DNA from: a virus | Lineage: Duplodnaviria > Heunggongvirae > Uroviricota > Caudoviricetes | IMG/VR virus record: IMGVR_UViG_2671180283_000013 | DNA: 17,125 nucleotides | Strand: one strand, 5' to 3' | Part shown: piece by piece, positions 6,897-16,857 of the stretch | Layout: each line of letters begins with the position of its first letter | Position numbering within the stretch: the first letter of the stretch is position 1 | The notes under the pieces: model-generated | What the model saw: the letters and a program-made list of their open reading frames with translations, nothing else | What the model was told of the DNA's origin: nothing | Databases searched by the model: none | Translations under genes and position numbers: made by a program

Positions 6897-8900
6897 ATGA
6901 TTATGAGTGAAAATGATACAACCCCAAAGAAGTCTACAAGCCAGATTAACAAAGCGGTATTCTTTACATCTGCTTTGCTAATTTTCCTTCTTGTCGCCTT
7001 TGCCGCCGTATTCCCGGATGTCGCCGACAAAAATTTTAAACTACTTCAGCAACAAATCTTCACGAATGCCAGCTGGTTCTACATACTTGCTGTGGCCCTG
7101 ATTTTACTGAGCGTCACGTTCCTTGGACTCTCACGTTACGGTGATATAAAGCTGGGCCCAGACCATGCGCAGCCTGATTTCAGCTACCACTCCTGGTTCG
7201 CGATGCTTTTTTCGGCAGGGATGGGGATCGGCCTGATGTTCTTTGGCGTTGCCGAACCTGTGATGCATTATCTTTCGCCACCTGTCGGCACTCCAGAGAC
7301 CGTTGCGGCAGCGAAGGAAGCCATGCGCCTGACGTTCTTCCACTGGGGTCTGCACGCATGGGCAATTTATGCCATCGTGGCGCTGATTCTGGCCTTTTTC
7401 AGTTACCGTCACGGTCTGCCTTTAACGCTGCGTTCTGCGCTCTATCCCATTATCGGCGATCGCATTTACGGGCCTATAGGCCACGCGGTTGATATCTTCG
7501 CCGTGATAGGCACTGTCTTTGGCGTTGCAACATCGCTGGGTTACGGTGTATTGCAGGTGAATGCCGGTTTGAACCATCTTTTCGGCGTGCCCATCAATGA
7601 AACGGTACAGGTCATTTTGATCGTGGTCATCACGGGGTTAGCGACGATTTCGGTGGTGTCCGGCCTGGACAAGGGAATACGCATCCTGTCTGAGCTTAAT
7701 CTGGGCCTGGCGGTGTTGCTCCTGGCGCTGGTCTTGTGCCTGGGTCCCACTGTGCTTCTGCTGAAGTCATTTGTGGAAAATACGGGTGGTTATCTGTCGG
7801 AACTGGTGAGTAAAACGTTCAACCTTTACGCGTATGAACCCAAGTCGAGCAACTGGCTGGGGGGCTGGACATTATTATACTGGGGATGGTGGCTTTCATG
7901 GTCGCCGTTTGTAGGTATGTTCATTGCACGCGTTTCCCGCGGCAGGACAATTCGTGAGTTCGTGACTGGCGTGTTGTTTGTTCCCGCCGGCTTTACGCTC
8001 ATGTGGATGACGGTGTTTGGAAACAGCGCCATCTATCTCATCATGAACCAGGGCGCCACTGACCTCGCCAATACCGTTCAGCAGGATGTTGCGCTTGCCC
8101 TGTTTAATTTCCTGGAGCATTTCCCGTTCTCTTCCGTGCTGTCATTCATTGCAATGGCGATGGTCATCGTCTTCTTTGTAACGTCTGCTGATTCGGGGGC
8201 AATGGTTGTGGATACTCTGGCATCAGGTGGGGTGGCAAACACGCCCGTCTGGCAGCGAATTTTCTGGGCATCGCTCATGGGCGTTGTTGCTATTGCCCTG
8301 CTGATCGCAGGGGGGCTGAGTGCGTTGCAAACCGTAACGATAGCGAGTGCATTGCCCTTCTCAGTTATCTTATTAATATCCATATACGGACTGTTAAAAG
8401 CCCTGCGTCGGGATTTGACCAAGCGTGAAAGCCTTAGCATGGCGACTATTGCTCCTACGGCTGCACGTAACCCAATTCCCTGGCAGAGAAGGTTACGCAA
8501 TATCGCGTATTTGCCGAAGCGCTCTCTTGTGAAACGTTTTATGGACGACATTATCCAACCCGCCATGACGCTGGTTCAGGAGGAACTTAACAAGCAGGGA
8601 ACGATAAGCCACATCAGTGACGCCGCCGAGGATCGTATTCGCCTTGAAGTCGATTTGGGCAACGAGCTGAATTATATATATGAAGTGAGGCTTCGCGGGT
8701 ATAACTCACCGACCTTCGCGCTCGCTGCGCTGGATAATGATGAGCAGCAGAGTGAACAACATCGATATTATCGCGCTGAAGTCTATCTCAAAGAGGGCGG
8801 CCAAAATTATGATGTAATGGGCTGGAATCAGGAACAGCTGATTAATGACATACTGGACCAGTACGAAAAACACCTGCACTTCCTGCATCTGGTTCGTTAA
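6897..8900 (+). CDS. BCCT-family transporter, BetT-like (choline/betaine-type) with long cytoplasmic C-terminal extension, 667 aa
   Basis: Contains the BCCT tryptophan signature WTLLYWGWWLSWSPFVGMFIARVSRGRTIREF and about 12 hydrophobic helices. Collinear with E. coli BetT as I recall it, including a C-terminal tail of about 170 aa; clearly a paralogue, not betT itself. Start could instead be 6903. Confidence 0.9.
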   Translation: MIMSENDTTPKKSTSQINKAVFFTSALLIFLLVAFAAVFPDVADKNFKLLQQQIFTNASWFYILAVALILLSVTFLGLSRYGDIKLGPDHAQPDFSYHSWFAMLFSAGMGIGLMFFGVAEPVMHYLSPPVGTPETVAAAKEAMRLTFFHWGLHAWAIYAIVALILAFFSYRHGLPLTLRSALYPIIGDRIYGPIGHAVDIFAVIGTVFGVATSLGYGVLQVNAGLNHLFGVPINETVQVILIVVITGLATISVVSGLDKGIRILSELNLGLAVLLLALVLCLGPTVLLLKSFVENTGGYLSELVSKTFNLYAYEPKSSNWLGGWTLLYWGWWLSWSPFVGMFIARVSRGRTIREFVTGVLFVPAGFTLMWMTVFGNSAIYLIMNQGATDLANTVQQDVALALFNFLEHFPFSSVLSFIAMAMVIVFFVTSADSGAMVVDTLASGGVANTPVWQRIFWASLMGVVAIALLIAGGLSALQTVTIASALPFSVILLISIYGLLKALRRDLTKRESLSMATIAPTAARNPIPWQRRLRNIAYLPKRSLVKRFMDDIIQPAMTLVQEELNKQGTISHISDAAEDRIRLEVDLGNELNYIYEVRLRGYNSPTFALAALDNDEQQSEQHRYYRAEVYLKEGGQNYDVMGWNQEQLINDILDQYEKHLHFLHLVR

Positions 8901-8907
8901 CAGCAAC

Positions 8908-8936
8908 ATGCCGCCACAGAGGCGGCATTTATTTAT
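8908..8936 (+). terminator. Rho-independent terminator-like hairpin after the transporter gene
   Basis: ATGCCGCC-ACAGA-GGCGGCAT: 8-bp perfect stem, 5-nt loop, followed by TTATTTAT, starting 8 nt after the TAA stop. Confidence 0.6.
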
Positions 8937-8963
8937 CCCGGCTGCAATATGAGGGAATGCAGA

Positions 8964-10241
8964 ATGATTTCACGCTGGAAATGGATGCTGAAGCAGACAT
9001 TTAAAAAACTATGGTTCAGGGCAACGTTATTCGCAATTGTCGCAATAATAACGGCCCTTTTATCAATTCTTTTTAAATCAATGATACCTGAGTCGGTTTC
9101 CGTGAAGGTTGGTGCGGAAGCAGTCGATAACATTCTGAACATACTGGCATCGAGTATGCTGGCAGTGACCACATTTTCGCTGAGCATCATGGTCACAGCC
9201 TACGGTTCAGCCACTACTAATGTGACTCCCAGAGCTACTCGTTTAGTTGTTGAAGACGTCACCACACAAAATGTACTGGCCACCTTCATCGGTTCTTTTC
9301 TCTTCAGTCTGGTAGGGATTATTGCCCTCAATATGGGAGCTTATGGAGAAAGGGGGAGAGTCATTTTATTCATTGTAACACTGGTTGTCATTGCCTTAAT
9401 CCTCATCACATTGCTTCGCTGGATACAGCATTTGACCTCTCTGGGGAGGGTTGGTGAGACAACGGCAAAAGTAGAACAGGCGGCCATCGAAACATTTATT
9501 GCGAGAGCAAGAAATCCCTGTCTCGGCGGATATCCATGGCTTGAGAACAATGAACAGCCGAAAGGAACGGTTGCAGTTTATCCGAAAAAGATTGGCTATG
9601 TTGAATATGTTGATATGGTGAAACTCAGCAAGCTGCTGACCAATGATCCCCGTCATGTATACCTCGTGGCGCAGCCGGGCAGTTTCATACATCCGTCCAC
9701 GCCAGTTTTGTACCTGAGTCAGGGCCAGGAGTCATCAATCAGCACCGATTTACTTGAGACGATTATTGTCTCGGATGTACGTTCATTTGCTCAGGACCCC
9801 CGATTTTGTCTTAGCGTCATGGCCGAAATAGCCTGCCGAGCCCTTTCCCCCGCAGTGAACGATCCTGGAACCGCCATTGATGTCATTGGCAGAGGTGTAC
9901 GTATACTTTCCGCTTACGCGCAGAATAAATCTGATGAAATAGAAGTGAAATATCCTTCTGTACATGTTGCACCACTTCAGAATAACGATCTACTTGAAGA
10001 CTTTTTCTCACCTGTTGCGCGCGATGGTGCCAGTATGAGGGAAATTCAGATAAGGGTACTTAAAGGACTGTCGATGCTGAGTAAGGGTTGGCCTGGAATT
10101 TTTGCTGAAGCCGCACAAACCCTAGCATTTGAAACATTAGAGCATGCTACTCGTGCTGACCATATAGATTCTGACAGATATCTAATAAAATCAATTTATT
10201 ATAATTTATTTAGTGGCGAAGATTCTAATAAAAAACCATAG
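8964..10241 (+). CDS. Membrane protein with about 5 N-terminal TM helices and a roughly 250-aa soluble C-terminal domain, possibly DUF2254-type; 425 aa
   Basis: ATG at 8964 is preceded by GAGGGA with 7 nt spacer; the alternative ATG at 8949 has no SD. Hydrophobic N-terminal third. C-terminal domain carries a motif (RALSPAVNDPGTAIDVIGRG) that I associate from memory with DUF2254 proteins. Confidence 0.8.
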   Translation: MISRWKWMLKQTFKKLWFRATLFAIVAIITALLSILFKSMIPESVSVKVGAEAVDNILNILASSMLAVTTFSLSIMVTAYGSATTNVTPRATRLVVEDVTTQNVLATFIGSFLFSLVGIIALNMGAYGERGRVILFIVTLVVIALILITLLRWIQHLTSLGRVGETTAKVEQAAIETFIARARNPCLGGYPWLENNEQPKGTVAVYPKKIGYVEYVDMVKLSKLLTNDPRHVYLVAQPGSFIHPSTPVLYLSQGQESSISTDLLETIIVSDVRSFAQDPRFCLSVMAEIACRALSPAVNDPGTAIDVIGRGVRILSAYAQNKSDEIEVKYPSVHVAPLQNNDLLEDFFSPVARDGASMREIQIRVLKGLSMLSKGWPGIFAEAAQTLAFETLEHATRADHIDSDRYLIKSIYYNLFSGEDSNKKP

Positions 10242-10644
10242 TTGCGGAGCAAGCGATACGGTTGTTGGCAAGTCAAGGGCAAAGCATTCGCGTGAGAGTG
10301 GGCGTCTGCTTTGTGCCATAAGCGGAAGTATTTAACAACTATCAGTGTTGTTCAACAGATAAAGGGGCACTTGATTTTTTCTGTTCTCAGGAAATGATAA
10401 AAGCGCGTCGGTTCAAGCCTGCTTAACGGGAGTTTGTTAATCCTGTTGCCGTGACGTTTTGACACCATTATGATGGGGAGACACTTAATGTATGAAGGTT
10501 CCGCCACTTATACCTGTCCAACAACTGCCTCGGGTGTTTCTTTGTATGAATAAGTGGTAATGAGTAGTGAATCGCTAACAGTCACCCGAACAATCGGTGC
10601 CTGCAATTAATTCTATATTCTAAACGAGGGGGAGATTATTACAC

Positions 10645-11625
10645 ATGAAATTTAAGGACAAGAACCTTAAGGCTCTCGCGGAATGTATCATAGGAGATAA
10701 TAAGGCATTTCTGTATCGTTCAAGCAGTCACATCACTGAATTTTTCCAGGACTGCGGCATGGATGTTACTCATGACGGATCCACTCGGTGGAAATGGACG
10801 GCCCAGAGGCTTGAAGAACTTCTTTATGAGCCACAGTCAAAGCCACATACTTTGCCGGAAAGGTTTGTTCATGTGCTCAGAACTTTAATGTTAAAAGAAG
10901 ATGCAATGGATGACGATCCAGGAAGATTAAAGGCGCTTGAAGAACTGAACAAGCCTTTGATGCGGGAAGGCTATGAGGCATTCTATGGTGACGATCGCCT
11001 TTTGTATATACGCCATACCGATACCAAAACGGTTTCAGTCAGTAATAACCCTCATCGGCCCTTAACGCCTCACGAAGTAGAATGCAGAAGGTTACTGACC
11101 GCGTTTCTTGATACCTGCTCAGAAGATGAGTTAATAGAAGATATTCTCCTTCCTTTATTCCGGCAACTTGGTTTTCACCGGATAACAGCAGTGGGACATA
11201 AAGATAAAGCGCTGGAATACGGGAAAGACATCTGGATGAAGTTCACACTGCCAACTCAGCATGTTCTTTATTTCGGCATTCAGGCAAAAAAAGGTAAGTT
11301 GGATGCGTCCGGTGCCAGCAAATCTACGAATTCAAACGTGGCAGAAATCTTCAACCAGGTACTGATGATGCTTGGCCATGAAATATTTGACCCAGAAACA
11401 AATAGAAAGGTGCTGGTAGATCATGCCTTTATCGTTGCTGGCGGAGAAATTACTAAACAGGCGAGGAACTGGCTGGGCGGGAAACTTGATGCCAGCAAAA
11501 GAAGCCAGATAATATTTATGGACCGGGAAGACATTCTTAATTTATATACTGTAAGTAATGTACCTCTGCCAACAGGTGCTCTCATCTCTGATGATGCCGT
11601 TAAGAACGATGATATTCCTTTCTAA
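10645..11625 (+). CDS. Orphan protein with a C-terminal Mrr-like restriction-endonuclease motif (PD-(D/E)xK-type) and an unassigned N-terminal domain of about 150 aa; 326 aa
   Basis: ATG at 10645 with GAGGGGGAG upstream. Motif pattern ...GKDIWMKF-x13-YFGIQAKKGK... (D-x17-QxK) followed by HAFIVAGGEIT, resembling the Mrr catalytic-domain signature as I recall it. The gene looks more AT-rich than the backbone by eye. Confidence 0.75.
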   Translation: MKFKDKNLKALAECIIGDNKAFLYRSSSHITEFFQDCGMDVTHDGSTRWKWTAQRLEELLYEPQSKPHTLPERFVHVLRTLMLKEDAMDDDPGRLKALEELNKPLMREGYEAFYGDDRLLYIRHTDTKTVSVSNNPHRPLTPHEVECRRLLTAFLDTCSEDELIEDILLPLFRQLGFHRITAVGHKDKALEYGKDIWMKFTLPTQHVLYFGIQAKKGKLDASGASKSTNSNVAEIFNQVLMMLGHEIFDPETNRKVLVDHAFIVAGGEITKQARNWLGGKLDASKRSQIIFMDREDILNLYTVSNVPLPTGALISDDAVKNDDIPF

Positions 11626-12052
11626 TCAGAAGTACGTCTTTTTCTGAAAGAATACGTGATAGGTAGCCACACCACACCTTTAGTGACCCCTTAATCTGGT
11701 AATATAACAGCCCGTATGAATGTCCGCGGCATCGCGGGCTGAAATTTATTAAAAATACTTATTCATCAAGCTGGAGTAGTTTGCCGAGTAACTGTAAACG
11801 CCCAACTTAACCGGACCATTCACTTTTAGATTGCTACCAGCAAACCAACTTCCGTTTCTCGCTCAAAGCGGACTAGAAGGTTAGCTTGCGTCGGACTTGG
11901 CGTATTTAAAGAAGTGCTGGTGGTAACTGGTTGTTGTGTTCCATTTCTACAAAACAAAATCACAGAAACTATACCCAATAGTTATATTGAATCAATGATG
12001 AGACAGCCTCATATTTATCAGAACTGGTGTACGTCCAATACAGGAGGTTGTC

Positions 12053-12142: not shown

Positions 12143-12353
12143 TTTTATATTGGCGAGGTGACGGGAGTTAAGTAGAATTGCTGCGGGTGCTTGAGGCTAT
12201 CTGCCTCAGGCATGAACACCAAAGGCAGATAGAGAAAAGCCCCAGTTAACATTACGCGTCCTGCAAGACGTTTAACATTAATCTGAGGCTCAATCTATGA
12301 ACGGCAAATCTAGGTTAGCCTCTTACGTGCCGAAAGGCAAGGAGAAGCAGGCT

Positions 12354-12509
12354 ATGAAGCAGCAAAAGGCGATGTTAATCGCCCTGATCGTCATCTGTTT
12401 AACCGTCATAGTGACGACACTGGTAACGAGGAAAGACCTCTGCGAGGTACGAATCCGAACCGGCCAGACGGAGGTCGCTGTCTTCACAGCTTACGAACCT
12501 GAGGAGTAA
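12354..12509 (+). CDS. hokD: Hok/Gef-family type I toxin, HokD(RelF)-like, 51 aa
   Basis: Translation MKQQKAMLIALIVICLTVIVTTLVTRKDLCEVRIRTGQTEVAVFTAYEPEE is near-identical to HokD from memory. SD AGGAG lies 9 nt upstream. The track ORF from 12297 is an in-frame upstream extension. Confidence 0.85.
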   Translation: MKQQKAMLIALIVICLTVIVTTLVTRKDLCEVRIRTGQTEVAVFTAYEPEE

Positions 12510-12724: not shown

Positions 12725-12976
12725 ATGATGAACATCGAAGAACTGCGTAAAATTTTTTGTGAAGATGGCCTCTATGCTGTGTGCGTTGAAAATGGAAATC
12801 TTGTTAGTCATTACCGCATTATGTGTTTGCGAAAGAATGGGGCTGCGTTAATTAATTTTGTGGATGGTCGAGTGACAGACGGATTTATCTTGCGCGAAGG
12901 TGAGTTTGTCACTTCATTACAGGCACTGAAAGAGATTGGAATAAAAGCAGGCTTTTCAGCTTTTGCAGAAGAATAA
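12725..12976 (+). CDS. rem: Rem-like small protein, 83 aa
   Basis: ATG at 12725 with GGAAGGA upstream. 83 aa and located directly after hokD, as rem is in Qin. Identity rests on size and position; the sequence was not verified from memory. Confidence 0.6.
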   Translation: MMNIEELRKIFCEDGLYAVCVENGNLVSHYRIMCLRKNGAALINFVDGRVTDGFILREGEFVTSLQALKEIGIKAGFSAFAEE

Positions 12977-13042
12977 ACTCATCTACAATCTTGCGCGGGG
13001 CTGAACTCCCGCTGAGTAACACCGTGCCACCGGAGAAAACCG

Positions 13043-13321
13043 ATGGCACGCAACGTAAAATATTACAATTCTGATAATTCGCCCGTTCTTGCCTGCACGC
13101 ACGAGCGGTATTCTCACGCATTCAAGTCTGAATGGTTCCAACACCCTCCATGTACTGAAGAGCAGGCTGAATGGATAATTCAGTGTTACCGCAGGCGCGG
13201 ATACGAGGTTAAGAAAGCCCTTAGTCTCGACTACCGTCACTGGATAATCTCCGTCAGGCTTCCTTACTCTGAACGCCCACCGCGTCCGTCTCGCACATTC
13301 CAGCAACGCATCTGGAGGTAA
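13043..13321 (+). CDS. Hypothetical protein, 92 aa, translationally coupled to the downstream ydfU-like gene
   Basis: ATG at 13043 with GGAGAA upstream. Its stop TAA (13319-13321) is immediately followed by the GTG of the next gene, and a GGAGG for that gene lies inside its 3' end. Confidence 0.6.
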   Translation: MARNVKYYNSDNSPVLACTHERYSHAFKSEWFQHPPCTEEQAEWIIQCYRRRGYEVKKALSLDYRHWIISVRLPYSERPPRPSRTFQQRIWR

Positions 13322-13322
13322 C

Positions 13323-14378
13323 GTGCGGGTATTACTTCGACCTGTTCTGGTACCGGAACTCGGGCTGGTGATCGTTAAGCCGGGCCGTGAATCCATGCCA
13401 GTATTCCACAATACCCGGGTATTGATGGAGCCGGAACCGAAAAGCATGCGTAATCTGCCGTCCGGGGTCGTTCCTGCCGTTCGCCAGCCGCTGGAGGAAG
13501 ACAAAACATTGCTGCCGTTTTTCAGTAACGCACGGGTGATTCGTGCTGCTGGTGGTGCTGGTGCATTGTCTGACTGGCTGTTGCGCCATATTAAATCCTG
13601 CCAGTGGCCACACGGCGATTATCATCACAGCGAAACTGTCATTCACCGTTATGGTACCGGCGCAATGGTGTTGTGCTGGCACTGCGACAACCAGCTGCGT
13701 GACCAGACATCCGAATCACTCGAGCAACTTGCTCATCAAAACCTGTCAGCATGGATGATTGACGTCATCGGTCACGCAATAAGCGGTACGCAGGAGCGTG
13801 AATTATCTCTGGCTGAATTATCCTGGTGGGCGGTCCGCAATCAGGTGGCGGACGCGCTACCGGAAGCGGTATTACGTCGTTCGCTGGGGTTGCGTGCGGA
13901 AAAAATCCGCTCAATGTACCGTGAAAGCGACATCGTGCCGGGAGAGCAGACCGCCACCAGCATACTGAAGCAGCGCACAAAAAATCTTGCGCCGATGCCT
14001 CACGCCCACCAGCAAAACCCGCCACAGGAAAAGACGGTGGTAAGCATTGCCGTTGATCCGGAGTCACCGGCTCAGTATCTCCAGCGCCAGAAACCACAAC
14101 GGGAAGAGATGCCCGTATACACGCGCTGGGTAAAAACGCAGAAATGCATGACGTGTGACAATCAGGCAGATGATCCGCATCACATCATTGGTCATGGACT
14201 AGGAGGGATGGGAACGAAGGCTGACGATTTGTTTGTTATTCCGCTGTGCCGTAAATGTCATAACGAACTGCACGCCGGGGTAAAAGATTTTGAAGAAAAA
14301 CACGGCAGCCAGCTGTTGTTGCTGATTCGTTTTTTAATGCACGCGAGAAATTCGGGCGTCCTGAAGTGGAAAGCATAA
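13323..14378 (+). CDS. ydfU: YdfU-like protein (DUF968-type) with a C-terminal HNH/zinc-finger-like motif, 351 aa
   Basis: GTG at 13323 with GGAGG 4 nt upstream. C-terminus CMTCDNQADDPHHIIGHGLGG...CRKCHNELH has a Cys/His pattern typical of HNH-like zinc fingers. Position between rem and the Q-like gene, as in Qin. Confidence 0.75.
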   Translation: MRVLLRPVLVPELGLVIVKPGRESMPVFHNTRVLMEPEPKSMRNLPSGVVPAVRQPLEEDKTLLPFFSNARVIRAAGGAGALSDWLLRHIKSCQWPHGDYHHSETVIHRYGTGAMVLCWHCDNQLRDQTSESLEQLAHQNLSAWMIDVIGHAISGTQERELSLAELSWWAVRNQVADALPEAVLRRSLGLRAEKIRSMYRESDIVPGEQTATSILKQRTKNLAPMPHAHQQNPPQEKTVVSIAVDPESPAQYLQRQKPQREEMPVYTRWVKTQKCMTCDNQADDPHHIIGHGLGGMGTKADDLFVIPLCRKCHNELHAGVKDFEEKHGSQLLLLIRFLMHARNSGVLKWKA

Positions 14379-14744
14379 ATGACTGAACGCATAGAATTTG
14401 TTTTGCCTTACCCGCCAACGGTGAATACTTACTGGCGACGTCGTGGCAGCACATATTTTGTATCAAAAGTCGGTGAGCGTTATCGCCGTGATGTGGCACT
14501 AATTGTTCGCCAGCAGCGGTTGAAATTAAACCTGTCCGGAAGGCTGGCAATAAAAATTATTGCAGAGCCACCGGATAAGCGCCGTCGTGACCTGGACAAT
14601 ATCCTGAAGGCACCACTGGATGCACTGACGCATGCGGGGCTGCTCATAGACGACGAGCAGTTTGATGAAATCAATATTGTGCGCGGTCAGCTTGTTCCTG
14701 GTGGGCGGTTGGGGATAAAAATCACAGAACTGGGGTGCGCATGA
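14379..14744 (+). CDS. rusA: RusA-family Holliday junction resolvase, 121 aa
   Basis: ATG directly abuts the upstream TAA. Contains the RusA hallmark PDKRRRDLDN and ALTHAGLLIDDEQ, collinear with E. coli RusA as recalled. Confidence 0.85.
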   Translation: MTERIEFVLPYPPTVNTYWRRRGSTYFVSKVGERYRRDVALIVRQQRLKLNLSGRLAIKIIAEPPDKRRRDLDNILKAPLDALTHAGLLIDDEQFDEINIVRGQLVPGGRLGIKITELGCA

Positions 14745-15430
14745 ATAACCAGTATTTACAGTTTGTGCGTGAGCAGCTCATTATCGCCACCGCTGATTTG
14801 AGTGGGGCAACAAAAGGTCAGCTTGAAGCCTGGCAGGAGAATGCCATGTTCGATACAGGGCGTTACAGGCGTAAAAAAATCCGGTACCGCGATGAAGTGA
14901 CTGGAAAAATGATAACGCGGGATAATCCCCCAATCCCGGGAAAGCAATCGCTGGCGAAGGGGACGTCAATTCCTCTGGTCAGTCCGATTGAGTTTTCGAC
15001 ATCATCGTGGCGGCGGGCTGTTCTGTCTCTTGAAGAACATCATAAAGCCTGGTTGTTGTGGTGTTACAGCGGGAGTATTTGTTGGGAATATCAGATCGCG
15101 ATAACACAGTGGGCGTGGAATGAATTTAATACTCAATCCGGTACCAGAAAAATTGCAGGGAAAACGCAGGAACGCCTGAAAAAATTAATCTGGCTGGCGG
15201 CGCAGGCAGTAAAAGCAGAACTTTTTGGTGGGGAAGGTTATGAATACAAGGAGCTGGCATTACTGGTGGGAGTGACAACTAAAAACTGGTCCAAAACATT
15301 TACTCGTCACTGGGTTGCAATGAAACACATTTTTCACCGACTGGATAGTGAGGCTTTATTGTTTGTAATGAGAACGCGTTCAAAACAAAAGGCGGCATTT
15401 TCAAAGCAAAGTGTTGCAAAAGTAGATTGA
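14741..15430 (+). CDS. Late-gene antiterminator Q-like protein (QuuQ-like), about 229 aa
   Basis: ATG at 14741 overlaps the rusA stop as ATGA; the track start at 14735 is a GTG two codons upstream. Assignment rests on position: downstream of rusA and followed by a strong terminator and tRNAs, as in lambdoid/Stx phages. Confidence 0.6.
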   Translation: MNNQYLQFVREQLIIATADLSGATKGQLEAWQENAMFDTGRYRRKKIRYRDEVTGKMITRDNPPIPGKQSLAKGTSIPLVSPIEFSTSSWRRAVLSLEEHHKAWLLWCYSGSICWEYQIAITQWAWNEFNTQSGTRKIAGKTQERLKKLIWLAAQAVKAELFGGEGYEYKELALLVGVTTKNWSKTFTRHWVAMKHIFHRLDSEALLFVMRTRSKQKAAFSKQSVAKVD

Positions 15431-15640: not shown

Positions 15641-15716
15641 GGCCCTTTAGCTCAGTGGTGAGAGCGAGCGACTCATAATCGCCAGGCCGCTGGTTCAAAT
15701 CCAGCAAGGGCCACCA
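15641..15716 (+). tRNA. tRNA with CAU anticodon, most like tRNA-Ile2 (lysidine type) rather than elongator Met
   Basis: Cloverleaf folded by hand: acceptor GGCCCTT/AAGGGCC, D-arm GCTCAGTGGTGAGAGC, anticodon loop CTCATAA, T-arm with TTCAAAT, 3' ACCA encoded. Anticodon arm (GCGACTCATAATCGC) resembles E. coli ileX as I recall it. Confidence 0.85.
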
Positions 15717-15723
15717 TCACATA

Positions 15724-15800
15724 CCGCCATTAGCTCATCGGGATAGAACGCCAGCCTTCGAAGCTGGTTTCGCGGGGTTCGAGTCTCCGATGGCGGTCCA
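15724..15800 (+). tRNA. tRNA-Arg (anticodon UCG)
   Basis: Anticodon stem CCAGC/GCTGG with loop CTTCGAA, T-loop TTCGAGT, acceptor CCGCCAT/ATGGCGG, CCA encoded. One mismatch in the D-stem. Confidence 0.75.
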
Positions 15801-15813
15801 TTATCGGTATTCT

Positions 15814-15890
15814 GCGTTTTTAGCTCAGCCGGACAGAGCAATTGCCTTCTAAGCAATCGGTCACTGGTTCGAACCCAGTACAACGCACCA
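15814..15890 (+). tRNA. tRNA-Arg (anticodon UCU)
   Basis: D-arm GCTCAGCCGGACAGAGC, anticodon stem ATTGC/GCAAT with loop CTTCTAA, T-loop TTCGAAC, CCA encoded. One acceptor-stem mismatch. Confidence 0.8.
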
Positions 15891-16656: not shown

Positions 16657-16857
16657 TTTTTTTGTTTGCTGTTTATTAAAAACACTTCTGCATGGTGAAT
16701 CCCCCTGTGCGGTGGGGCAATCAGCAAGAAGGAATATGGGGTAATCGCGGATTCAGGTGCTGATACTGAATTCACCGGGAGGCACCCGGCACCATGCTTT
16801 GCCACAAAAGTGTTATTTCTGTTTTTCTCAAACTATCATCGTTATCCCTTTATTTTC

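Follow-up and report, generated by a model that had tools for sequence, protein, structure and literature searches.

Several described systems resemble parts of the gene analysed here. The AbiJ-NTD1 domain has been described in single-protein conflict systems, among them AbiJ, Stk2-like kinases and fusions of the domain to an Mrr-type REase, with the fusion listed and predicted to be Abi-like (Anantharaman et al. 2013, PMC3710099). A proposed role of the AbiJ-NTD1/Stk2 N-terminal domain is to detect a sign of infection and to restrain a toxic effector. Our literature search found no tested member of the AbiJ-NTD1 plus Mrr REase architecture. A further point of comparison is the C-terminal tip of SSB, which in E. 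coli reads MDFDDDIPF (PMC7913777; PMC5872125) and serves to dock more than 17 partner proteins (PMC7913777). A link between the SSB tip and SbcB is already important in phage defence, where SSB-like proteins of phages that bear an FDDDIPF tip set off DRT10 through host SbcB (bioRxiv 10.64898/2026.04.29.721553). We found no nuclease or defence protein for which the literature describes an SSB-like tail. Here we analyse such a combination, in a predicted nuclease encoded in a 17,125-nt stretch of tailed-phage DNA (hereafter the window).

Results

The gene is an ORF of 326 aa, the length first given for it, at 10645..11625 (+), with an ATG start and a ribosome-binding site read from the sequence (GAGGGGGAG, 10628..10636, +) 7 nt 5' of the ATG. 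Its product is WP_023147794.1, annotated as "hypothetical protein". The non-coding stretch 5' of the CDS, described at the outset as a region of its own of about 400 bp, covers 10242-10644 (403 bp); it had no ncRNA match in an Rfam search and contains a candidate sigma-70 promoter found by consensus scan only (TTGCCG-17-TATGAT, 10446..10474, +). Downstream, still within the cassette described below, a GC-rich hairpin (CCGCGGCATCGCGGG) with an A/T-rich run after it, also read from the sequence (11712..11745, +), is a possible terminator, which the terminator scan did not call. The window is ordered as follows: BCCT transporter (6897-8900), DUF2254 (8949-10241), the nuclease gene, sok/hok (12185-12509), rem, DUF968, RusA and Q. 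In K-12 Qin the slot immediately 5' of hokD-rem is occupied by relB-relE, which agrees with the placement first given for the gene, between transporter cargo and hok in the relBE slot. The AT-richness relative to the backbone that had also been remarked on is real but modest, with a GC content of 43.2% for the cassette and 43.5% for the CDS, compared with 47.5% across the window and 50.8% at positions 13000-15430.

Promoter region, CDS and 3' non-coding DNA together form a mobile single-gene cassette of ~1.57 kb (10306..11873, +). It is 99.7-99.9% identical among the window and two further loci, L001 and L002, with unlike flanks, and the E. coli cassette has the same ends within all three of these unrelated surroundings. 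The junctions are sharp (start TGTGCCATAAGCGG..., end ...GCTCAAAGCGGAC), with no terminal repeats, inverted repeats, target-site duplications or recognisable homing site. L001 is a Qin-like prophage; L002 is the end of a Mu/e14-like prophage adjoining a type II R-M system, and this neighbouring R-M pair has an endonuclease of its own.

We found 3,877 homologs of the 326-aa protein (E<=1e-3). The nuclease family comprises more than 3,700 proteins from at least 452 species and many phyla, and its members are 60-75% identical across phyla over their full length, N-terminal domain included. Occurrence is patchy, with the gene present in 187 of 5,426 complete E. coli genomes (~3%). It is carried by prophages, plasmids and defence islands with varying flanking genes. 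Of the 47 plasmids on which it was found, 25 are conjugative; in a Salmonella IncF plasmid its place is in the leading region, adjoining ssb, ardA and a methylase gene. Plasmids of clinical Klebsiella, Salmonella and E. coli also carry it. Numerous copies are in chromosomal islands among defence genes, and the nearest neighbours of the gene include type I/II R-M systems, defence reverse transcriptases, a CBASS effector, Hachiman HamA and toxin-antitoxin genes. None of these neighbours is a constant companion: among 96 loci there was no recurrent neighbour family, on which ground we rejected a partner methyltransferase or immunity gene, and no cognate methyltransferase stood next to the gene as in a type II R-M system. 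The gene is thus solitary as well as mobile, and the initial description of it as an orphan and stand-alone gene is supported. A 430-aa upstream ORF, considered as a conserved partner in the window and at the Ruficoccus locus L003, was rejected on finding that the two ORFs are unrelated. Sequenced phages almost entirely lack the gene: of 50,697 phage genomes 0 have it, and of 2.9 million viral contigs 20 do. It is therefore not a typical phage gene, and its prophage location is incidental; this near absence is neutral with regard to a defence role.

The nuclease domain, of Mrr/FokI-like PD-(D/E)xK type, spans residues ~160-305 (11122..11559, +). Candidate catalytic residues are E160/D161, where helix 1 begins, D195, immediately ahead of strand 2, and Q213-x-K215, within strand 3. 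Exactly 17 residues lie between D195 and Q213, as in the D-x17-QxK pattern from which the nuclease had first been recognised, and the strings quoted for it (GKDIW, YFGIQAKKGK and HAFIVAGGEIT) are all present. The pattern is not a chance one, since all of these candidates, together with P170, E191, G193, L202, P203, M241, D249, D259, H260 and A273, show no variation among 33 sequences that reach down to 27% identity. The AF2 model, built from a diverse alignment (with 30 near-identical homologs the pLDDT of the nuclease core was ~30), bears out the proposed fold: an alpha/beta core built around a mixed central sheet, its elements ordered alpha-beta-beta-beta-alpha-beta, with a conserved acidic residue ahead of strand 2 and with strand 3 carrying (D/E/Q)xK, as is characteristic of PD-(D/E)xK enzymes. 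Among the best structural matches are AspBHI and MspJI, which are modification-dependent enzymes, and a Foldseek search of the PDB and a viral library gave weak nuclease or Rpb5-like matches only. Direct searches of Pfam, NCBIfam, PHROGs and PADLOC with the window protein were without a match, including at E<=1 for the Pfam model Mrr_cat (PF04471, gathering threshold 21 bits), and a PDB sequence search with the single protein or the family profile gave none. Mrr_cat aligned below threshold yet colinearly with five of 33 relatives, among them P0141 (18.4 bits, residues 165-303 against model positions 4-112 of 115), P0193 (19.0 bits), P0153 and P0179. Both the nuclease fold and its catalytic residues are therefore conserved in this family, and we infer that the protein is an active nuclease.

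The N-terminal domain (residues 1 to ~135; 10645..11049, +), to which the initial annotation could give no identity, is modelled as five helices and a beta-hairpin, mostly at a pLDDT of 84-95. Searches of Pfam and NCBIfam with the N-terminal half of the window protein and of 32 relatives gave no match to Mrr_N, SRA or any other modification reader; the AbiJ_NTD models in Pfam matched neither the window protein nor its relatives, and the Foldseek search of both the PDB and the viral set found nothing for this domain. Weak links came from PADLOC models: positions 5-115 of Stk2 aligned with residues 7-114 of relatives P0015, P0022, P0041 and P0050 (E 2.5e-4 to 8e-3), and positions 10-64 of AbiJ matched P0022 weakly (E 0.044). 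The window protein itself had no Stk2 or AbiJ match in PADLOC. Judging by these sequence similarities, the domain is possibly an AbiJ-NTD1/Stk2-N-like sensor or regulatory domain. In some relatives, unrelated N-termini are found on the same nuclease.

At its other end the protein has a hypervariable flexible linker, delimited by entropy and low AF2 pLDDT (residues 310-320; 11572..11604, +), and then a conserved mimic of the SSB C-terminal tip, DDIPF (residues 322-326; 11608..11622, +), within a C-terminus reading ...KNDDIPF. This tip, the feature that most constrains mechanism, had been overlooked in the initial annotation. As in the SSB-Ct motif, acidic residues precede an [I/V/L/P]-P-F terminus and follow a disordered linker. 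Mean entropy is 0.56 bits per site in the tip, 2.82 in the linker and 0.38 in the nuclease core. An ending of the form [DEN][DEN][IVLM][PST]F was found in 115 of 116 close homologs and is retained by divergent representatives; in many homologs the copy of E. coli SSB extends over its final 7-9 residues, (D)FDDDIPF. A set of 1,391 background ORFs contained, bar one unexplained exception, no annotated protein from outside the family with the tip motif. A form without the tail is retained in three Acinetobacter species, which shows that the tail can be dispensed with. The AF2 model shows no confident docking of the tail and no OB-fold, and there was no SSB match in Pfam or the PDB.

The tail also varies with the host. 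Actinobacterial homologs end in DEPPF with a PW upstream (DPW...DEPPF), like the SSBs of Actinobacteria, whose tails we read from sequence: those of Rhodococcus strain 5Ap, Nocardia and Arthrobacter end DDPWG...(D/S)EPPF. The nuclease of the same Rhodococcus strain ends in SPWALSNDEPPF. A literature search for "DDEPPF" found nothing. The PPF ending is present in 107 of 119 actinobacterial homologs, 93 of the 119 also having the upstream PW, and both elements are found in 0 of 116 E. coli-type homologs; these counts are not independent, as the switch from IPF to PPF/PW may have been a single evolutionary event. In Pseudorhodobacter the nuclease ends in PDEIPF and the SSB of the same replicon in DDEIPF, an alpha-proteobacterial comparison that is consistent with tracking but not discriminating. 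At the level of sequence, then, the tail is conserved and its variant matches the SSB of the host lineage. A generic acidic autoinhibitory tail is disfavoured, since the tail changes with the SSB variant of the host lineage, down to the PW element.

Discussion

Our combined findings lead us to favour, with modest confidence, a stand-alone DNA endonuclease of three parts, encoded by a single-gene cassette, tied by its tip to the host SSB network and cutting invader DNA. The tip would dock into the SSB-tail pockets of host genome-maintenance proteins, or onto the SSB OB-fold, either of which may be its binding partner. Docking would couple the nuclease to SSB-coated replication or recombination intermediates, where it would cut DNA, the likeliest target being phage or plasmid DNA that is replicating after entry into the cell, with the N-terminal domain presumably gating this activity. 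The role is probably one in defence. This had been suggested from the start, and the residence in mobile elements, the defence-rich neighbours and the weak Stk2/AbiJ match argue for it. Two results count against it: a search of PADLOC-DB v2.0.0 with the window protein matched 0 defence families (E<=1), and 60-75% identity across phyla is atypical for immune sensors that follow fast-evolving phage proteins. The tail might instead be a bait, of the guard or decoy kind, with capture or release of the SSB-like tip freeing the nuclease from inhibition by the N-terminal domain; the trigger would be invader proteins that grab the host SSB tip, or a flood of ssDNA that re-wires the SSB network. We regard this as rather unlikely. 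If true, an immune effector would sense infection by impersonating the central hub peptide of genome maintenance in bacteria, adapted to the SSB of each host lineage.

The structural likeness to AspBHI and MspJI, together with the D...QxK variant of the catalytic motif, could also point to a modification-dependent (type IV) restriction enzyme akin to Mrr/MspJI, in which the N-terminal domain reads modified DNA and the tail merely localises or tunes the enzyme. A solitary gene without a methyltransferase partner in 96 loci is what would be expected of type IV enzymes, and in the model the N-terminal domain ends in a long helix and a beta-hairpin, which could form a winged-helix-like DNA binder. 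However, this domain is helical rather than SRA-like, has no Pfam match to Mrr_N, SRA or another known modification reader, and is linked by sequence only to Stk2/AbiJ N-termini. Moreover, some relatives exchange it while retaining nuclease and tail, and the tracking of host SSB by the tail is left unexplained. We think a type IV enzyme improbable.

Its mode of spread raises the question of whether the gene serves its own element, with the nuclease aiding spread or maintenance of the cassette (by homing-like cleavage, addiction or competitor exclusion) or the tail mimic competing with SSB for partners in order to manipulate replication or repair. The 1.57-kb cassette with identical sharp ends in three unrelated flanks, the 47 plasmids (25 conjugative) and the Salmonella IncF leading-region copy beside ssb, ardA and a methylase gene fit such a role, and strong conservation suits an interaction with conserved host machinery. 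On the other side, the junctions are devoid of a target-site duplication, inverted repeat or recognisable homing site, many copies lie within chromosomal islands among defence genes, and the invariance of the catalytic residues implies that simple competitive mimicry is not the whole function. We consider an element-serving role quite unlikely. An accessory DNA-repair or structure-specific nuclease, tethered to a hub by a C-terminal peptide as in NucS/EndoMS and without a role in conflict, is very unlikely: hub tethering is the resemblance, but the gene is scattered in its occurrence (187 of the 5,426 complete E. coli genomes have it) and always in variable or mobile DNA with changing neighbours, and its tail copies the peptide of the hub, whereas repair enzymes bind the hub.

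A stand-alone nuclease in a prophage hotspot is, as a defence candidate, the common and ordinary part of this finding. What is unusual is that a nuclease family with thousands of members in many phyla should carry at its C-terminus a copy of the SSB tip matched to the lineage, this tip being the peptide around which more than 17 replication, recombination and repair proteins are organised. If the tail is functional, it offers a testable route by which a mobile nuclease could find, or be licensed at, replication intermediates, and it bears on how sequence-independent defence nucleases separate invading DNA from self. As a natural SSB-Ct mimic, it could also be a probe of the SSB interactome. 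A gene annotated as a hypothetical protein thereby gains a name and a hypothesis.

We compared the protein with the known systems that it most resembles. Relative to the Mrr/FokI-type nucleases (Mrr_cat PF04471, MspJI, AspBHI, type ISP LlaBIII, AF1548 and the Avs4 nuclease domain), the window protein falls below every Pfam threshold, and its N-terminal domain is unrelated to Mrr_N, SRA and the helicase/methylase modules. To our knowledge, no enzyme of this set ends in an SSB tip. With the AbiJ-NTD1 systems it shares a mostly helical N-terminal domain of ~140 aa followed by a toxic enzymatic effector, here a predicted Mrr-like nuclease; unlike them, its family has marginal N-terminal homology, absent for the window protein itself, and an SSB-like tail is not mentioned for them in PMC3710099. 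The tail is like that of bacterial SSB in having a disordered variable linker and then [D][D][D/E][I/V/L/P]PF at the extreme C-terminus. Unlike SSB, the protein has no OB-fold or other SSB similarity, its body being a nuclease, and its linker is ~12 aa compared with ~56 aa. NucS/EndoMS is likewise a PD-(D/E)xK nuclease with a C-terminal peptide, but that peptide binds a hub, the sliding clamp, whereas the nuclease described here imitates the docking peptide of the hub itself; NucS is moreover a vertically inherited repair enzyme, and the present gene a mobile solitary cassette. Finally, the triggers of DRT10 likewise have an SSB C-tip motif on a mobile-element protein, which acts in phage-host conflict via host factors that bind the SSB tip, as the nuclease may do. 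The tip is on an OB-fold phage trigger protein in DRT10, whereas here it is on a nuclease that is the candidate effector.

Genomic setting of the nuclease gene

The gene lies where it was initially placed, at 10645..11625 on the plus strand, starting with ATG and encoding a protein of 326 aa (WP_023147794.1). By sequence reading, a ribosome-binding site (GAGGGGGAG) stands 7 nt 5' of the ATG, and 403 bp of non-coding DNA separate the gene from the stop codon of the preceding one. The window is a Qin-like lambdoid prophage, whose gene order begins with a dicA-like repressor, a YdaT-family gene and a DUF977 gene; Rfam placed the DicF sRNA at 2716-2767 on the minus strand. Directly upstream of the nuclease gene are two non-phage cargo genes (6897-10241), for a 667-aa BCCT betaine/carnitine/choline transporter (6897-8900; Pfam E=7e-199) and a 430-aa DUF2254 membrane protein (8949-10241; E=1.6e-92; PHROG 27913). 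Downstream is a hok/sok type I toxin-antitoxin locus (12185-12509), with sok at 12185-12359 (Rfam, 111.7 bits) and a hok-containing ORF ending at 12509. It is followed by rem (12725-12976) and then, in order, DUF968, RusA and antiterminator Q. Three tRNA genes clustered downstream of Q (15641-15887) and the sRNA STnc100 (16661-16833) were found by Rfam, all on the plus strand. In K-12 Qin, relB-relE occupy the slot directly upstream of hokD-rem, so the initial annotation was right that the gene sits between transporter cargo and hok in place of relBE. The whole 17-kb window was found, at ≥80% coverage, in no complete E. coli genome of the collection.

A solitary and mobile gene

We surveyed 740 ORFs within 4 kb of the gene at 96 loci and found that a neighbour family recurs at most in four near-identical loci of one lineage, which bears out the description of the gene as an orphan. 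The gene was present in 187 of 5,426 complete E. coli genomes, where it travels in a 1.57-kb cassette (10306/10312-11873 in the window) whose copies share 99.7-99.9% identity although they lie in three unrelated flanks: the window, a Qin-like prophage where it lies beside an integrase fragment (locus L001), and a Mu/e14-like prophage end with a type II R-M pair, a GIY-YIG gene and an integrase alongside (locus L002). The cassette ends are sharp and identical in all three flanks (TGTGCCATAAGCGG... and ...GCTCAAAGCGGAC), and neither a target-site duplication nor terminal inverted repeats were seen at the junctions. Its GC content is 43.2%, whereas the window as a whole has 47.5% and the lambdoid late-regulation block further downstream 50.8%; the AT-richness suggested initially is therefore real, but only modest.

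The gene was also found on 47 plasmids, 25 of them conjugative. On the Salmonella IncFIB/IncFII plasmid pCFSAN001010 (L010, 9001-9981; L099) it belongs to the leading region, in the company of ssb, ardA and methylase genes. There it is flanked by duplicated 'DNA methylase' and DUF1380 genes, runs in the orientation opposite to its neighbours and adjoins an IS110 transposase. It was in 0 of 50,697 sequenced phage genomes, and among 2.9 million viral contigs just 20 had it; this near-absence indicates that the prophage location is one of many.

At individual loci the gene adjoins a DUF1156/SNF2-PLD block resembling DISARM (Cyanobacteria), HipA and AAA_15/21 genes (Vibrio), VapBC (Klebsiella), or an ATPase/helicase pair with an HNH gene (Mycobacterium). 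Matches to the nearest neighbours (149 neighbours at 85 loci) included integrases, type I R-M subunits, Drt3a/4/6 and RT-Toprim reverse transcriptases, a CBASS effector, a SAVED protein, HamA, caspase-like proteins, PDC candidates and PIN toxins. Judged from this list of matches, the neighbourhood is variable and rich in defence and mobile-element genes. At four Paracoccaceae loci (L059, L066, L068 and L070), an ORF of ~1,045-1,080 aa in the same orientation ends 71-74 bp upstream of the homolog. The neighbour survey probably counted this ORF with its type I restriction R-subunit matches; the association is lineage-specific rather than family-wide. The gene is thus shown here to be solitary and mobile.

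A conserved Mrr-like nuclease domain

The window protein matched no PDB sequence and, at E≤1, no model in Pfam, NCBIfam, PHROGs or PADLOC, leaving the initially proposed defence gene without a counterpart in the last of these, a defence-system database. At E≤1e-3, however, its family comprises 3,877 proteins (1,160 cluster representatives at 50% identity), with relatives in at least 452 species-representative genomes. These belong to Gamma-, Beta- and Alphaproteobacteria, Cyanobacteria, Acidobacteriota, Planctomycetota, Verrucomicrobiota, Desulfobacterota, Synergistota, Bacteroidota, Hydrogenedentota and Actinomycetota, and full-length identity to the E. coli protein across phyla is 60-75%. 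The family combines horizontal spread with strong purifying selection.

An AF2 model, built on an alignment reaching down to 27% identity, had a mean pLDDT of 82.7. Its structural matches (figures as listed) were FokI (10.0), AspBHI (9.9), AF1548 (9.8), the type ISP enzyme LlaBIII (9.0), MspJI (8.5), R.BspD6I (8.3), Avs4 (7.7) and NucS (7.1), with Hachiman HamA and Shedu ranking after NucS; the top Foldseek ranks were similar kinds of enzymes, weakly matched. Residues E160, D161, D195, Q213 and K215 were unchanged in 33 of 33 sequences, and in the model these catalytic candidates occupy the expected places, with E160/D161 opening helix 1, D195 just preceding strand 2 and Q213/K215 within strand 3. 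The motif strings quoted initially are present, and since 17 residues separate D195 from Q213, the D-x17-QxK pattern is correct. Sub-threshold matches to Pfam Mrr_cat, colinear with the nuclease domain, occurred in 5 of the 33 relatives, the clearest being that of the relative P0141 (residues 165-303 to model positions 4-112/115; 18.4 bits, cutoff 21). Together, the fold matches, the invariant motif and the colinear Mrr_cat matches support the initial reading of a Mrr-like PD-(D/E)xK nuclease as to fold and motif, though not as to formal Pfam membership. Both the nuclease fold and the catalytic residues are shown here to be conserved.

An SSB-like C-terminal tail

An invariant (I/L)PLP at residues 306-309 is followed by ~12 hypervariable residues (2.82 bits/site), whereas conservation returns in the last five residues (0.56 bits; nuclease core, 0.38 bits). 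KNDDIPF is the C-terminus of the window protein. Among full-length close homologs, 115 of 116 end in [DEN][DEN][IVLM][PST]F, most commonly DDDIPF; homologs in many species end in (D)FDDDIPF, and the tip is kept in divergent representatives at 38-59% identity. DDDIPF is the conserved C-terminal hexapeptide of SSB (PMC5872125), and in E. coli SSB the nine-residue acidic tip, MDFDDDIPF, is the docking site for more than 17 partner proteins (PMC7913777). A natural tail-less form of 312 aa occurs in Acinetobacter modestus, A. venetianus and A. halotolerans (L088, L089 and L090; 8001-8927), ending in ...NSIDVPEII(V) without the linker or the SSB-like tip.

A screen of the 96 loci (1,391 ORFs) gave the tip motif only in family members and in one 179-aa ORF. 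This ORF (L042:2905-3444, minus strand) ends in ...PPDDEMPF and lies 4.5 kb from an aberrant-tailed family member; it is not itself a family member, nor is it SSB-like by PDB phmmer or blastp.

The Actinobacterial SSB tails that we read from sequence end in PPF, with PW upstream: ...TDDPWGSS...GGSDEPPF in Rhodococcus pyridinivorans 5Ap, ...EDDPWGSAP...MDDEPPF in Nocardia and ...QDDPWAPN...DSEPPF in Arthrobacter. The nuclease homolog of R. pyridinivorans 5Ap, on another plasmid of the strain, ends in ...TSTSPWALSNDEPPF, and those of Mycobacterium and Corynebacterium in ...INPWTTTDEPPF and ...PKPWSGNNELPF. Of the 120 proteins most closely related to the Rhodococcus one, all that bear a genus name are Actinobacterial. 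A total of 119 had sufficient length for scoring; 107 of these end in PPF and 93 carry PW a few residues upstream, versus 0 of 116 for each in the E. coli-type clade. The switch from IPF to PPF/PW may be one ancestral event, in which case these counts lack independence. A nuclease and an SSB encoded on one Pseudorhodobacter replicon end in PDEIPF and DDEIPF, respectively; the SSB of pCFSAN001010 itself ends in ...PPMDDDAPF, not DDDIPF. We show here, as judged from sequence, that the tail copies the host SSB tip and that two separate elements of it track the SSB variant found in the host lineage. Such tracking favours binding to a recogniser of that SSB tail over the reading of an acidic tail of a generic kind.

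The N-terminal domain

Residues 1 to ~135 are predicted, with high model confidence, to form five helices and a beta-hairpin, for which structure searches of the model, including Foldseek, gave no match. The PADLOC Stk2 model (positions 5-115) matches residues 7-114 of several relatives (E 2.5e-4 to 8e-3), one of which also aligns weakly to the AbiJ N-terminus (E 0.044); the window protein itself aligns to neither model. AbiJ-NTD1 is a mostly helical N-terminal domain of ~140 aa, fused to AbiJ HEPN domains, S/T/Y kinases, HKD nucleases or Mrr-type REase domains and proposed to sense an invader component and restrain the toxic C-terminal enzyme (Anantharaman et al. 2013, PMC3710099). An AbiJ-NTD-like domain joined to a Mrr-type nuclease was already predicted computationally in 2013 (PMC3710099), and the protein family studied here would fit this architecture if the marginal N-terminal homology, seen in relatives of the window protein, is real.

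Eight representatives (P0233, P0255, P0179, P0172, P0128, P0132, P0140 and P0150) keep the nuclease core with unrelated N-terminal regions, and the tip is still present in some of them (IDDLPF in P0128, PPF in P0132). Another, P0193 (282 aa), has a C-terminal Trans_reg_C winged-helix domain (E=6e-12) instead of the tail. Such swapping of ends around a common nuclease core is the modular pattern of conflict systems. Since the N-terminal domain is itself very highly conserved, the cue that it reads may well be conserved too, either a host factor or a DNA structure rather than a fast-evolving phage protein.

Proposed mechanism and comparison with known systems

We propose that the window protein is an active DNA endonuclease whose tail would dock either on the SSB OB-fold or in those pockets of host genome-maintenance proteins that receive SSB-Ct. 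Docking would couple the nuclease to SSB-coated replication and recombination intermediates, its activity would be gated by the N-terminal domain, and its role may be the exclusion of invading DNA. We consider it unlikely that this protein is instead a type IV modification-dependent restriction enzyme. That the gene encodes a selfish nuclease serving its element, or a manipulator of the interactome, seems to us rather doubtful, and an accessory repair nuclease, by analogy with NucS, would be improbable.

Stand-alone nucleases in prophage hotspots are familiar. We found no description of an SSB C-terminal tip on a nuclease or defence protein in the open-access papers searched. The window protein is of above-average interest, because its tail offers a specific, testable mechanistic handle and the family is very widespread. 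The SSB-tip/SbcB axis is already important in phage defence, and DRT10 is triggered by a phage SSB-like protein with an FDDDIPF tip (bioRxiv 10.64898/2026.04.29.721553). That preprint describes no tip-bearing nuclease; there the tip is on the phage SSB-like protein, whereas in the family studied here it is on the nuclease itself.
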